28,735 bases of DNA from a virus. Taxonomy: Duplodnaviria > Caudoviricetes. The notes beneath the pieces are model-generated. The model did not search any database. It saw nothing but the letters and a program-made list of their open reading frames with translations, and was not told where the DNA came from. Both the position numbers and the translations under genes were made by a program. Of the stretch, positions 3,005 through 28,735 are shown piece after piece; position 1 is the stretch's first letter, and each line of letters begins with the position of its first letter. The stretch is taken from positions 1 through 28,735 of IMG/VR virus record IMGVR_UViG_3300037088_000669; one strand, given 5' to 3'.

Positions 3005-3097
3005 TTAATAGTTTTTATATAAATAGTCCAGATAACTTGTTTGATACTTTAAATTGTATGTTTTTTATCGGCACGTATTTATAGTAAAATCAGAAGA

Positions 3098-23727: not shown

Positions 23728-24252
23728 ATGAAGAATAATAGCACAAAAGAAAGACTTTTTGAAGTTACTGGCAGACTTGATAAAACATTTAATCCAAATC
23801 CATTTGATAGATTTACTATACAAGTAAATAGACCAGATTATCAAGGAACTATTAAAAGAAATCGTGATGGATGGATGTTATACGATGTAACTAATAGTCC
23901 AGAAGAGGCAGGACCGTTTGGTACACTTGAAAGTCTGATAGATTATTATGATATTGACAAATCTCAAATGACTGGTGATTATGTTAAAAATTTACCTGAA
24001 GCAGTAACTGCTGCTGCACAAACTACAAATGTACAACAAACAGATATGTCCTCACCACAAACAACATATGTAGATAGCACATATAAAATGATTGCACCTG
24101 CACTTAAAAGAATAAGGACTGTAGATCAATTTCCAATGGCATTTAAAGGGTGGTTTAGTGCATTGGGATATAAGCCACAATCATCGCCACTTACAATAGC
24201 ACAAGTGAGATTAGATATAGAACAAGTAATGAGAGAATTGGGATATAAATAA
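23728..24252 (+). CDS. Hypothetical protein with shared N-terminal motif
   Basis: 174 aa; N-terminus KNNSTKERLFEVTGRLDKTF; GTATTTATT at 23705-23713. Confidence 0.8.
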   Translation: MKNNSTKERLFEVTGRLDKTFNPNPFDRFTIQVNRPDYQGTIKRNRDGWMLYDVTNSPEEAGPFGTLESLIDYYDIDKSQMTGDYVKNLPEAVTAAAQTTNVQQTDMSSPQTTYVDSTYKMIAPALKRIRTVDQFPMAFKGWFSALGYKPQSSPLTIAQVRLDIEQVMRELGYK

Positions 24253-24289: not shown

Positions 24290-24320
24290 TTTGTATTTAT
24301 CATTTTAATGTATATCTTTG
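24290..24320 (+). promoter_or_regulatory. Bacteroidota housekeeping-sigma promoter (-33/-7)
   Basis: TTTG (24290-24293), 19-nt spacer, TATCTTTG (24313-24320). Confidence 0.8.
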
Positions 24321-24351
24321 CGAAGAGTTTTTAATAAATGTTATTTGAGAA

Positions 24352-24426
24352 ATGAAAAATTTAGTTAACATAGTTCCGCAACCCCAACAGCATCCACAAA
24401 TTTTGGAATGGGGAAACTATGCTTAA
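24352..24426 (+). CDS. Attenuator leader peptide MKNLVNIVPQPQQHPQILEWGNYA
   Basis: ATG 24352, TAA 24424-24426. Contains eight consecutive codons CCG CAA CCC CAA CAG CAT CCA CAA (Pro/Gln/His) matching the downstream tRNAs. Confidence 0.8.
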   Translation: MKNLVNIVPQPQQHPQILEWGNYA

Positions 24427-24495
24427 ATTTTTCTAAGAATTTTTTAGGTTAGACAGAAAAACCCCATTCATATCGAGTGGGGTTTTTCATTTTTT
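24369..24495 (+). promoter_or_regulatory. Ribosome-dependent transcription attenuator (1:2, 2:3, 3:4)
   Basis: 1:2 = CATAGTT(24369-75)/AACTATG(24415-21) plus CCCCA(24382-86)/TGGGG(24409-13). 2:3 = GAATGGGG(24406-13)/CCCCATTC(24462-69). 3:4 = terminator. Confidence 0.78.
24456..24495 (+). terminator. Attenuator intrinsic terminator
   Basis: GAAAAACCCCATTC-ATATC-GAGTGGGGTTTTTC followed by ATTTTTT. Confidence 0.88.
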
Positions 24496-24515
24496 GTTCT
24501 TTGATGTATTTTTAT

Positions 24516-24590
24516 CTGGGTGTTCCGCAGACGGCTATACGGGCGTGCTTTGGAGGCACGTGTTCACTGGTTCGAATCCAGTTACCCAGA
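24516..24590 (+). tRNA. tRNA-Pro(UGG), divergent, A37
   Basis: Acceptor CTGGGTG/TACCCAG+A; anticodon arm CGTGC-TTTGGAG-GCACG; T arm ACTGG-TTCGAAT-CCAGT. No encoded CCA. Confidence 0.85.
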
Positions 24591-24596
24591 CAACAA

Positions 24597-24691
24597 CAGG
24601 GAGTGAGCGAGTTGGTTGAAGCTGCTGGTCTTGGAAACCAGTGACGGCACAAAGGCGTTGTCGTCCGTGGGTTCGAACCCCACCTTCCTGA
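24597..24691 (+). tRNA. tRNA with Pro(UGG) anticodon and long variable arm
   Basis: Acceptor CAGGGAG/CTTCCTG+A; anticodon arm CTGGT-CTTGGAA-ACCAG; variable stem GACGGCA/TGTCGTC; T arm GTGGG-TTCGAAC-CCCAC. Confidence 0.82.
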
Positions 24692-24758
24692 CGGTGAGAC
24701 TGTTTTAGAATTTTACATAGACGTTAGAGTAATAGCGAAGCGTAGAAAAATTCAACAT

Positions 24759-24833
24759 GGTAGGCGTAGCTCAATTGGTTAGAGTGCCAGATTGTGGTTC
24801 TGGTCGTTGCAGGTTCGAGTCCTGTCGCCTACC
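24759..24833 (+). tRNA. tRNA-His(GUG)
   Basis: G-1 plus GTAGGCG/CGCCTAC+C73; anticodon arm CCAGA-TTGTGGT-TCTGG; T arm GCAGG-TTCGAGT-CCTGT. Confidence 0.93.
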
Positions 24834-24881
24834 CGAAAAGCGTGATAAAAGCGTTTATCACGTATTTGAGTGATATATTTT

Positions 24882-24954
24882 CGGGATGTGGTGTAGTTGG
24901 TAACATGCGTGCTTTGGGAGCATGAGACCGTGGGTTCGAGTCCCGCCATCCCGA
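24882..24954 (+). tRNA. tRNA-Pro(UGG), canonical
   Basis: CGGGATG/CATCCCG+A; anticodon arm CGTGC-TTTGGGA-GCATG (G37); T arm GTGGG-TTCGAGT-CCCGC. Confidence 0.93.
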
Positions 24955-24960
24955 CTACAT

Positions 24961-25036
24961 GGTGATTGTAGAGGAATTGGTAAACTCACCTGACTGTGAA
25001 TCAGGAATCTTGCGGGTTCGAGTCCCGTCTTTCACC
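24961..25036 (+). tRNA. tRNA-His(GUG), A37, two U.U mismatches in acceptor stem
   Basis: G-1 plus GTGATTG/CTTTCAC+C; anticodon arm CCTGA-CTGTGAA-TCAGG; T arm GCGGG-TTCGAGT-CCCGT. Confidence 0.85.
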
Positions 25037-25143
25037 CAAAAACGCCAAGGGGGGTGCGCAAAATAAATCTTGCAACTCCTTGAACGTTAAAAAGTTCTTT
25101 GAAAATCTTGTCGCAAATTAAGCAAATAAGTACGACAAAATAT

Positions 25144-25216
25144 TGTCTCATAGTGTAATGGCTAACATGCCTGACTCTGAATCAGTAGATTGCAGGTTCG
25201 ACTCCTGCTGAGACAG
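25144..25216 (+). tRNA. tRNA-Gln(CUG)
   Basis: TGTCTCA/TGAGACA+G; anticodon loop CTCTGAA; T arm GCAGG-TTCGACT-CCTGC. Confidence 0.9.
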
Positions 25217-25266
25217 CAAAGTAAATTTATGCAATAAGTACCGAAAAACGGCACTTTATGCAAAAA

Positions 25267-25327
25267 TATACCCGAACAGGTATAAATATACTCAAAATAG
25301 TGTACTTTATACCCGAACAGGTATAAA
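25267..25327 (+). repeat. Two identical 20-bp hairpin-forming direct repeats TATACCCGAACAGGTATAAA
   Basis: Copies at 25267-25286 and 25308-25327; each folds TATACC-CGAACA-GGTATA. Confidence 0.85.
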
Positions 25328-25329
25328 AC

Positions 25330-25412
25330 TGTCCTTTGGCAGAATGGCGATTGCATCGGTCTTTGAAGCCGACACCCCAACGGGTTTGTAGGTCCGAATC
25401 CTACAGGGACAA
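25330..25412 (+). tRNA. tRNA with Gln(UUG) anticodon and long variable arm
   Basis: TGTCCTT/AGGGACA+A; anticodon arm TCGGT-CTTTGAA-GCCGA; variable stem ACCC-CAAC-GGGT; T loop TCCGAAT. Confidence 0.8.
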
Positions 25413-25423
25413 CAAAAAAGTTC

Positions 25424-25453
25424 TTTGATATCTCATAATTAATATTACCTTTG
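25424..25453 (+). promoter_or_regulatory. Possible internal Bacteroidota promoter
   Basis: TTTG (25424-25427), 18-nt spacer, TACCTTTG (25446-25453), 4 nt before the ATG at 25458. Confidence 0.5.
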
Positions 25454-25457
25454 TAAA

Positions 25458-26234
25458 ATGTTTTACGTAGTACAAGAAAATGTGTTCAATGAAGCAAACT
25501 ATGACAACTTAGTATTGGCATTGGATAAATTATCATTGCCTTATGAGATAGTAAAAGTTAAAGCATTTCTTAAAACATTCAGAGTAAAAACCAAAAGAAA
25601 AGATGTGTTTCCTTTCGGCTCATTGAAGATGGCAAGATTGTCAACAAAGCGTGGCTGGCGACCCGGTTCTCAAATGAATGCTAATCATGACTACTTGATT
25701 TATCGTGACCATTATAAGGAAAATCTTTTGAATTATGATTCACGAATACAGAAATTCGGTGATGATTTTTTCAGCAAAGAAATATTCTTTGCCAGACCAA
25801 CACAGGATACAAAAGTATTTACTGGTAAAGTATTTGATATGGAGCAGTGGCGAGACTTTGTTGCTTATTCATTAACTAATGGTCACACAACATTACTGAA
25901 TATTGATACGGAAATTCAAATATGTTCAGTTAAGAAAATTCAACAAGAAATCAGGTTTTGGATTGTCAAAGGCGAAATCGTCACAGCAAGCCAGTACAGA
26001 CTTGGAAACAGATTGGTGCTTAATGAAAATATTGATCAGGCAGCTTATGAGTATTGTAAAAAAATGGTTGACATATTTCAACTGAATGATGCTTTTGTAA
26101 TGGACTTGGCATTAACTGAGAATGGATATAAGATAGTTGAATGTGGTTGCATTAATTGTGCTGGATTTTACAAAGCAGATATGCAAAAACTTTTAATGAA
26201 ACTTGAAGATAGTTTTAATTGTCCTATGGTGTAA
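25458..26234 (+). CDS. ATP-grasp protein (R2K clade / DUF4343-like)
   Basis: FFARPTQDTKVFTGKV, EIRFWIVKGEIVTASQYR, AFVMDLA...KIVECGCINCAGFY. Confidence 0.8.
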   Translation: MFYVVQENVFNEANYDNLVLALDKLSLPYEIVKVKAFLKTFRVKTKRKDVFPFGSLKMARLSTKRGWRPGSQMNANHDYLIYRDHYKENLLNYDSRIQKFGDDFFSKEIFFARPTQDTKVFTGKVFDMEQWRDFVAYSLTNGHTTLLNIDTEIQICSVKKIQQEIRFWIVKGEIVTASQYRLGNRLVLNENIDQAAYEYCKKMVDIFQLNDAFVMDLALTENGYKIVECGCINCAGFYKADMQKLLMKLEDSFNCPMV

Positions 26235-26293
26235 TTGGCTAACACGTCAGATTTTGATTCTGAAGAGTCGGGGTTCGAACCCCTGTAGGACAA
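26220..26293 (+). tRNA. tRNA-Gln(UUG)
   Basis: TGTCCTA/TAGGACA+A; anticodon arm TCAGA-TTTTGAT-TCTGA; T arm CGGGG-TTCGAAC-CCCTG. Overlaps the last 15 nt of the ATP-grasp ORF. Confidence 0.9.
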
Positions 26294-26307
26294 CAAACTT
26301 TATAATT

Positions 26308-27135: not shown

Positions 27136-27510
27136 ATGAGCTATAATTTATTCCTTGACGATTTTCGTGAACCAGAAGACGCATTTAATCACACAAATAA
27201 CCAATTATATTTACTTGGCTGGGTTGTTGTTCGTAATTACGATGAATTTGTAAAAACAATCGAAGAAAAGGGCATTCCTGAAATGATTTCATTTGATCAT
27301 GATCTTGCTGACGAGCATTACGAATCACGTCAAGAATATGATGATTATAAAGAAAAGACTGGTTTTCATTGTGCCAAATGGTTTATTAATTATTGTATTG
27401 ACAACAAAAAAGAACTTCCAGCAACGATTCTTATACATTCAATGAATCCTGCTGGAAGTGCTAATATTAAATCTCTGTTCGATACTTATTATAAGTATTT
27501 CAGAACTTAA
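27136..27510 (+). CDS. Cyclic-phosphate-processing receiver (REC)-like domain protein
   Basis: LFLDDFREP...WVVVRNYDEF...ISFDHDL...KTGFHCAKW...IHSMNPAG matches the divergent REC family predicted to act in RNA end healing. Confidence 0.8.
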   Translation: MSYNLFLDDFREPEDAFNHTNNQLYLLGWVVVRNYDEFVKTIEEKGIPEMISFDHDLADEHYESRQEYDDYKEKTGFHCAKWFINYCIDNKKELPATILIHSMNPAGSANIKSLFDTYYKYFRT

Positions 27511-28661: not shown

Positions 28662-28735
28662 ATGAGCAAAAATGCCACCAAAGAAAGACTTTTCGAAGTA
28701 ACAGGCAGACTTGATAAAACCTTCAGACCCAAATT
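28662..28735 (+). CDS. Start of a gene with the shared N-terminal motif (truncated by window edge)
   Basis: MSKNATKERLFEVTGRLDKTFRP; GTATTTATT at 28639-28647. Confidence 0.75.
   Translation, partial: MSKNATKERLFEVTGRLDKTFRPK

Follow-up and report, generated by a model that had tools for sequence, protein, structure and literature searches.

Predicted leader-peptide attenuators of tRNA operons in large phages

Introduction

Leader-peptide attenuators are known from amino-acid operons, among them trpL, hisL and pheL and the multivalent thrL and ilvL. In the pheM-pheST attenuator of E. coli the leader controls a synthetase, and the T-box riboswitch, which has no open reading frame (ORF), binds uncharged tRNA directly. 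Here we analyzed a 28,735-nucleotide stretch of viral DNA (Duplodnaviria; Caudoviricetes; IMG/VR record IMGVR_UViG_3300037088_000669), hereafter the window, in which a short leader ORF and a terminator precede eight tRNA genes for Pro, His and Gln. This unit is probably a ribosome-operated transcription attenuator of the trp/his type, which reads decoding speed and has phage Pro, His and Gln tRNAs as its output.

The his leader has previously been treated as a speed sensor (PMC4046918). The nearest functional precedent is the trn operon of Anabaena, a spare tRNA array that is repressed by TrcR and is likewise switched on under translational stress (PMC8421152, PMC10272220). According to the available parts of these two papers, the Anabaena system differs in that a repressor acts at the promoter on the whole array at once, without codon specificity; the words “attenuat” and “leader” do not occur in the available text of PMC8421152. 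Phage tRNA rescue has been reported for T5 tRNA-Tyr with retron-Eco7 and T1/T7 tRNA-Lys with PrrC (PMC11555353), amplification of T6 tRNA-Tyr counters Septu (PMC13096335), and PARIS is reportedly a further tRNA-cleaving defence with phage tRNA rescue (PMC11464382). As would be the case here, the phage supplies replacement tRNA and dose matters, but in those phages the dose is provided by a strong promoter or gene amplification, and the accessible sections of these papers describe no sensing leader (“attenuat” occurs 0 times in those of PMC11555353).

An attenuator of tRNA genes was not found in full-text searches of open-licence PMC papers and bioRxiv. The available parts of an attenuator survey (PMC2965389) hold no mention of phage or tRNA genes, and those of a jumbo-phage review (PMC7824862) none of attenuation or leaders.

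Results and discussion

Architecture and predicted operation of the leader

An earlier note on the window, made from its letters alone, had proposed a promoter, a 24-codon ORF, an alternative helix, a terminator and eight Pro/His/Gln tRNAs. All of these were recovered from the sequence where the note had placed them (Table 1), including the anti-terminator strand GAATGGGG at 24406-13 and its complement CCCCATTC at 24462-69. The latter lies in the 5' arm of the terminator, whose 3' arm spans 24475-88, and transcription is predicted from the promoter to start near 24327. Eight consecutive codons of the leader specify Pro, Gln or His, and none of the other 15 codons after the start does so. These amino acids account for 9.6% of the 6,907 codons in 13 window genes, which gives a probability of ~1e-7 for eight in succession in such an ORF. 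The codon CCC is present in 27 of 28 distinct sensors and makes up only 6% of Pro codons in the phage genes.

If the leader is translated and coupled to transcription, as we presume, a ribosome that is slow at the sensor codons would leave segment 2 available for pairing with the 5' arm of the terminator, and the polymerase could then read into the tRNA array. A ribosome that reaches the stop codon, or the lack of any ribosome, would leave the terminator intact. The supply of functional tRNA would thus be under negative feedback. The trigger would most likely be the loss of host tRNA during infection, whether from defence nucleases or from general decay.

The predicted fold of the leader region comprises a long 1:2 hairpin, with the terminator as a stem apart from it (z = -4.7, reached by 0 of 200 shuffles). 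When folded from the predicted start without a ribosome, the 1:2 hairpin was favoured by 5.7 kcal/mol over a forced anti-terminator. With codon 12 in the ribosomal A site, the model formed the anti-terminator in a transcript without the terminator 3' arm, and with the ribosome at the stop codon segment 2 was covered and the terminator formed. An equilibrium model gave the anti-terminator of the window a probability of 0.00 without a ribosome, 0 at the stop and ~0.9 for stalls up to H14. In every family, stalls in this model cease to be permissive where the cognate run ends (Q13 to P15 in the window leader, depending on the footprint), and each codon run stops about four codons 5' of the anti-terminator segment. 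An accessibility model was also applied, in which the positions that free segment 2 were 88% Pro/Gln/His codons (147 positions, window family) vs 26% elsewhere; for Lys/Tyr leaders, 61% of the freeing positions were cognate vs 19% elsewhere. Among nine switch sequences, each segment 2 paired best or near-best with its own terminator arm. Helix 2:3, formed by segment 2, was 98% paired and invariant in 35 sequences, and 1:2 pairing was conserved in 81% of the cells scored.

Some leaders had been selected by their pairing, and the analysis was therefore repeated in a non-circular way on loci recovered with sensor-only patterns. A tRNA was found within 1 kb at 22 of 30, 14 of 14 and 7 of 8 distinct loci. 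All 43 loci with a tRNA carried a terminator and an upstream duplex of -11 kcal/mol or below; of the nine others, this applied to the contig-end case only. Control terminators of these phages reached -11 kcal/mol in 11 of 170 cases, five of which were missed leader terminators.

Like trp/his attenuators, the phage unit has a short ORF with a run of control codons (translation being predicted), mutually exclusive 1:2, 2:3 and 3:4 pairings (in the predicted states and the sensor-only loci, set against control terminators), an intrinsic terminator between the promoter and the regulated genes (from sequence and folding), a stop codon over segment 2, and control codons whose specificity matches that of the regulated genes. 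These genes are tRNAs and one inserted ATP-grasp gene rather than genes for amino-acid biosynthesis, transport or synthetases, and we therefore regard the unit as a variant, not a member, of the trp/his class. The phage leaders differ further in being viral, in combining up to nine amino acids in one leader, in forming sets of three to four that cover the whole code, and in their tracking of isoacceptors. The pheM-pheST system also places a leader attenuator on part of the tRNA-charging supply, but it controls a synthetase for one amino acid and is cellular. As in T-box riboswitches, anti-termination would be linked to tRNA status, but the phage unit has an ORF. An Rfam scan of the window to E 1 returned tRNAs and two sub-threshold matches only, with no cis-regulatory family at threshold and no T-box, and thus neither a stem I with specifier loop nor a T-box anti-terminator.

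Table 1. Features of the leader and tRNA array in the window, and composition of the leader-led operons in the phages compared
Feature	Position in window	Strand	Details
Bacteroidota-type host promoter (presumed consensus)	24290..24320	+	-33 TTTG 24290-93, 19-nt spacer, -7 TATCTTTG 24313-20
GTATTTAT motif, candidate phage late promoter	24293..24300	+	overlaps -33 element; putative function
Leader ORF, 24 codons	24352..24426	+	MKNLVNIVPQPQQHPQILEWGNYA followed by stop; start, frame and stop conserved in related loci
Sensor codons P-Q-P-Q-Q-H-P-Q	24376..24399	+	CCG CAA CCC CAA CAG CAT CCA CAA
Predicted 1:2 hairpin	24339..24455	+	-25.2 kcal/mol; hides segment 2 when leader untranslated (folding)
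Segment 2, anti-terminator strand	24406..24413	+	GAATGGGG; -12.3 kcal/mol duplex with terminator 5' arm
Intrinsic terminator	24456..24495	+	stem 24456-24488, -22.1 kcal/mol; T tracts to 24495
GTTCTTTG motif, presumably boxA-like	24496..24503	+	repeats at 25094 and 25420, between tRNAs
tRNA-Pro(UGG)	24516..24591	+	A37, irregular D arm
tRNA-Pro(UGG), 96 nt	24597..24692	+	long variable arm, A37, C1-G72/A73 acceptor
tRNA-His(GUG)	24760..24834	+	G37
tRNA-Pro(UGG)	24882..24955	+	G37
tRNA-His(GUG)	24962..25037	+	A37
tRNA-Gln(CUG)	25144..25217	+	A37
tRNA-Gln(UUG), 84 nt	25330..25413	+	long variable arm, A37
Promoter-like site and R2K ATP-grasp gene, 258 amino acids	25424..26234	+	site 25424-53; gene 25458-26234
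tRNA-Gln(UUG)	26220..26294	+	A37
Operon 1, G001-G003			leader PQPQQHPQ; tRNAs Pro/His/Gln
Operon 2, G001-G003			leader rich in D, E, V, L, A, W, M; tRNAs Asp/Glu/Val/Leu/Ala/Trp and distant Leu/Met genes
Operon 3, G001-G003			leader YYYGKKSYKK; tRNAs Lys/Tyr
Operon 4, G001-G003			leader rich in T, S, I, N, R, G, F, C; tRNAs Thr/Cys/Asn/Ile/Ser/Phe/Gly/Arg
Operon 1, G006			tRNAs Pro/Cys/Thr/Phe/Trp/Gln/His/Arg-ACG
Operon 2, G006			tRNAs Lys/Val/Arg-UCU/Asn/Met/Gly/Glu/Asp/Ile
Operon 3, G006			tRNAs Leu/Ser/Tyr
Operon 1, phi4:1			tRNAs Pro/Glu/Gln/His/Leu/Arg-ACG
Operon 2, phi4:1			tRNAs Ala/Lys/Ile/Gly/Met/Asp/Thr/Val/Arg-UCU
Operon 3, phi4:1			tRNAs Tyr/Ser/Asn/Trp/Phe/Cys

Leader codons correspond to the tRNAs behind them

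A pattern based on the peptide only yielded 41 viral loci, comprising 29 short ORFs followed by Pro/His/Gln tRNAs, one contig-end copy and 11 unrelated sequences. Scans of viral and metagenome contigs with switch patterns gave 103 and 113 loci, the loose pattern behind the 103 returning many unrelated ones. From the switch pattern and a minimum of four Pro/Gln/His codons, 89 distinct leaders were chosen irrespective of their downstream content. A tRNA was present downstream of 84 of the 85 distinct leaders that had at least 300 nt of downstream sequence, and 427 of the 442 calls were for Pro, Gln or His (Pro 170, Gln 154, His 103, Arg 9, undetermined 5, Leu 1; one operon, L062, was cut short in this tally). 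Start, frame and stop are kept among related leaders while the sensor changes in length by whole codons; two leaders have a one-base slip 3' of the sensor. The comparative check suggested in the earlier note was thus passed, as the ORF is retained in front of homologous arrays and its codons shift with the anticodons behind them. Five matches were obtained from cellular genomes, which were scanned with one switch pattern only: two represent the real unit in phage-like contigs, and three are GC-rich chance matches. These phage-like contigs (L228, L229) are placed in metagenome bins labelled as unrelated bacteria and are probably mis-binned.

One related contig (L079), which is 99.3% identical to the last 8.7 kb of the window, extends into a second leader-operon module (DEVLAW). 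Three complete relatives of 350-365 kb (G001, G002 and G003) have almost their entire tRNA set gathered in a single region of 30-45 kb. The set is divided into four blocks, and every block is preceded by a leader ORF, an anti-terminator segment and a terminator of its own. The four modules jointly cover all 20 amino acids. The same four leader-operon pairs are present in G005 and G008, with a Lys/Tyr leader in G005 that differs in sequence and switch. Separate scans for leaders 2, 3 and 4 found the expected arrays at 26/28, 19/19 and 13/13 loci, respectively. When amino acids were permuted among the operons, 0 of 200,000 permutations reached the cognate fraction of 0.685 observed for the four-operon leaders from codon 2; the codon window was set by geometry and ended where the footprint of a stalled ribosome would extend over the anti-terminator segment. 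At one locus (L104) leader 4 is duplicated ~880 nt apart, and the upstream copy is truncated and lacks the switch.

Two other partitions of the tRNAs were found (Table 1). The 165 kb phage G006, first met via the switch pattern and not via the peptide, carries three leader-led operons with a different split. A structural protein of G006, unrelated to the leader, led to the Cellulophaga phages phi4:1 and phi17:2, and the cultured phi4:1 has a third partition with three operons, which are headed by matching leaders at about positions 87065, 88025 and 89771 of its record. For one of these leaders, a GTG start within the annotated gp075 was chosen by eye. The codon-level match from codon 2 was 0.67 for G002, 0.74 for G006 and 0.82 for phi4:1, compared with 0.29-0.35 after permutation, and from codon 6 it was 0.82, 0.97 and 0.96, with four-box superwobble allowed and one Cys anticodon set by hand. 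For each of these phages, 0 of 100,000 permutations reached the observed match. The attenuator proposed in the earlier note has thereby stood a comparative test over four family operons and two other partitions. In the phi4:1 annotation, gp075 appears as an over-extended leader ORF, and gp076 (L238 4113-4196) overlaps a tRNA-Ser(UGA) called by ARAGORN.

The correspondence extends to Arg isoacceptors. In both G006 and phi4:1, a CGT leader heads the Arg-ACG operon and an AGA leader heads the Arg-UCU operon. In the window family, an Arg tRNA is present in the block for 7 of 12 CGN-bearing leaders vs 0 of 74 others, and one locus (L296) has both TTA in its sensor and a Leu-UAA gene. Since Arg isoacceptors are tracked separately, and since extra tRNA is no cure for amino-acid starvation, the leaders probably respond to the supply of tRNA and not to that of the amino acid.

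The tRNA array and its inserted gene

The array at 24516-26294 contains three Pro, two His and three Gln tRNAs, six of which have A37; the usual base at this position in bacterial tRNA-Pro is G37. Several tRNA bodies per anticodon are found in the blocks: in a set of 199 distinct Pro/His/Gln genes, position 37 is A in 128 and G in 71, and 44 genes are at least 82 nt long (long arms). The diversified bodies would fit an escape from nucleases or from dependence on a modification. Under the identity rules as we take them to be, the acceptor stems in the window agree with the anticodons (Pro C1-G72/A73, His G-1/C73, Gln U1-A72), and because of this match the tRNAs are probably charged with their cognate amino acids. 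A role of the long-arm tRNAs as mis-charged rescue tRNAs was considered and is given no support by the acceptor stems. A pure TrmD (G37) grouping of the tRNAs partly fits the first operon of phi4:1 but fails in the window family, in which Leu(CUN) and usually also Arg(CGN) are placed elsewhere.

An R2K ATP-grasp gene, missed by the earlier note, is inserted before the eighth tRNA and occurs in 3 of 36 related operons. Its promoter-like site ends 4 nt 5' of the ATG, making the gene nearly leaderless. Because this gene with its own promoter-like site precedes it, the eighth tRNA may be driven by an internal promoter and escape the attenuator.

The tRNA regions of G001-G003 and G005 (L042-L051) contain many tRNAs of normally short-arm types that measure 82-97 nt (Pro, Gln, Glu, Val, Trp, Lys, Cys, Asn, Thr, Ile and Met), often beside a short copy. 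A tRNA with the anticodon CUA, a possible amber suppressor, closes the tRNA region in four large relatives (G001 268386, G002 237313, G003 148036, G009 72476).

Evaluation of the attenuator and of alternative explanations

Several observations weigh against the attenuator. In the full transcript with a stalled ribosome, the terminator (-32.7 kcal/mol) beats the anti-terminator (-24.6 kcal/mol) at equilibrium, and because it does so in all cases, any switch must be kinetic. The equilibrium model is permissive also at the non-cognate codons 2/3-8, with no closing on the 5' side; the states without a ribosome and at the stop and the 3' edge fit the behaviour expected of an attenuator, these early codons do not. 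In the accessibility model, segment 2 of the window leader is only 0.3-0.5 free for stalls P9-Q13, and the long leaders (DEVLAW, TCNISFGR and G006-A) are not supported, their anti-terminators forming without a ribosome (0.83-0.92). Within-family covariation was not significant, with 2:3 invariant, 1:2 at shuffle level and the fourth family borderline (45/500). The codon correspondence also has gaps. Among 53 leaders that bear His codons and have 2 kb of downstream sequence, five are without a called His tRNA, the codon window of the Lys/Tyr leader reaches a cognate share of only 53-73%, stray tRNAs of another class occur in L088, L056 and G005, and some leaders have outlasted their tRNAs (L064 lacks Val, Glu and Ala genes, and no Pro gene was called in G008). 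The Arg association (Fisher p 1.5e-7) is overstated, as the loci share ancestry, and of five CGN leaders without an Arg tRNA, three have less than 370 nt of flank and the two with full flanks are real misses. Isolated tRNAs elsewhere in these genomes have no leader, and in Flavobacterium phage immuto 2-6A, the next by portal, the 3 kb examined contained four tRNA calls with no leader or terminator before the cluster. The proposal that the leader “senses exactly” the tRNAs downstream was borne out as a codon-anticodon match but is too strict, since some leaders keep codons for uncalled tRNAs and a few stray tRNAs are present. Contigs from three RNA runs of the same study were short pieces, mostly over tRNAs and none over the leader, and have no bearing either way.

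The equilibrium advantage of the terminator and the weakness of the folding models for long leaders would also be expected if there were no regulated switch in vivo, the terminator being overridden by a phage or host anti-termination factor, or the ORF setting a fixed level of read-through, acting in trans or serving as a processing signal. The GTTCTTTG motif points the same way, as such boxA-like motifs adjoin many terminators (within 120 nt past the terminator in 40 of 81 family members) and are ~5-fold denser just 5' of tRNAs (12 in 23.9 kb vs 18 in 170 kb). However, the motif sits downstream of the terminator, and both the tracking of three tRNA partitions and Arg isoacceptors by the leader codons and the end of the run about four codons before the anti-terminator segment would be left unexplained; we consider this explanation highly improbable. 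A leader that senses amino-acid starvation and induces tRNAs for the scarce amino acids also appears unlikely. Classical attenuators respond to uncharged tRNA, the same wiring would react to it as a side effect, and the long-arm bodies had suggested mis-charged rescue tRNAs. Yet Arg codons follow isoacceptors and not the amino acid, and with acceptor stems that match anticodon identity, the extra tRNAs would need the same scarce amino acid.

A sub-case of the attenuator, to which we give somewhat less than an even chance, is that the same switch was selected specifically against host defences that cleave or disable tRNAs. Lys and Tyr tRNAs, the reported targets of PrrC and retron-Eco7 (PMC11555353) and of Septu (PMC13096335), share an operon of their own, and the several bodies per anticodon are consistent with an evasion idea put forward in PMC10264068. 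Of 36 related loci, 28 have a cREC gene 3' of the Pro/His/Gln array (27136-27510 in the window), counted irrespective of match length; a role in RNA repair, by removal of cyclic phosphate ends, has been proposed for this gene (PMC7824862). On the other hand, the operons together serve all 20 amino acids and lineages differ in how they partition the tRNAs, which would fit a general homeostat just as well. Because four modules cover the whole set, the Pro/Gln/His unit, as one of them, is not a dedicated answer to a defence that targets these tRNAs, and the trigger named in the earlier note, tRNA-targeting defence, was supported by no result. Defence nucleases, general decay of host tRNA or a high demand late in infection may each have selected for the unit. 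Only tentatively do we suggest that the attenuators act as a codon-resolved alarm, in which the loss of a given host tRNA to an anti-phage nuclease would induce only the matching operon of diversified, nuclease-evading replacements, and the switch would close again after decoding had recovered. In such an alarm, and with the same reserve, three or four ribosome-read attenuators of large Bacteroidota phages would split the genetic code among them.

Phage context and promoter motifs

The window phage is large and T4-like, with T4-type portal and terminase genes in the 28,735-base fragment, a GC content of ~32% and relatives of 330-365 kb. The closest cultured portals are 34-37% identical and belong to Flavobacterium phage immuto and to one that was deposited as a Microcystis phage. 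A close cultured relative was not found by portal comparison (best identity 37%) or among DNA matches, which were only tRNA-sized.

The host is presumably a member of the Bacteroidota, judging from the promoter at the leader, which resembles what we take to be the consensus of this phylum. The full motif is found 5' of 74 of 81 family leaders vs 0.65% of random 100-nt windows. A second motif, GTATTTAT, which the earlier note had also missed, overlaps the -33 element, and GTATTTA is present upstream in 76 of 81 family leaders. The form RTATTTAT also occurs shortly 5' of many virion or late-type genes of the window, including portal and terminase (in addition to 24293-24300, e.g. at 3075, 9294, 11367, 13549, 14240, 17566, 19978, 20003, 23487, 23705 and 28639), and is a candidate phage late promoter; at the tRNA leaders it coincides in part with the -33 element. 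The array is flanked by genes at 23728-24252 and 28662-28735, which have the N-terminal motif KERLFEVTGRLDK in common; it is also found in related loci.

Conclusions

It is a long-standing question why phages carry large sets of tRNAs and when these are used. If leaders gate each block, phage tRNAs would be an inducible feedback system and not a constitutive supplement, and attenuation would be extended from amino-acid supply to tRNA supply. Each leader would then be a ready reporter of which tRNAs fail in infection. The design is present in the cultured pair of phi4:1 and C. baltica, so that codon-compensation, host-decay and anti-defence hypotheses for phage tRNAs are directly testable.

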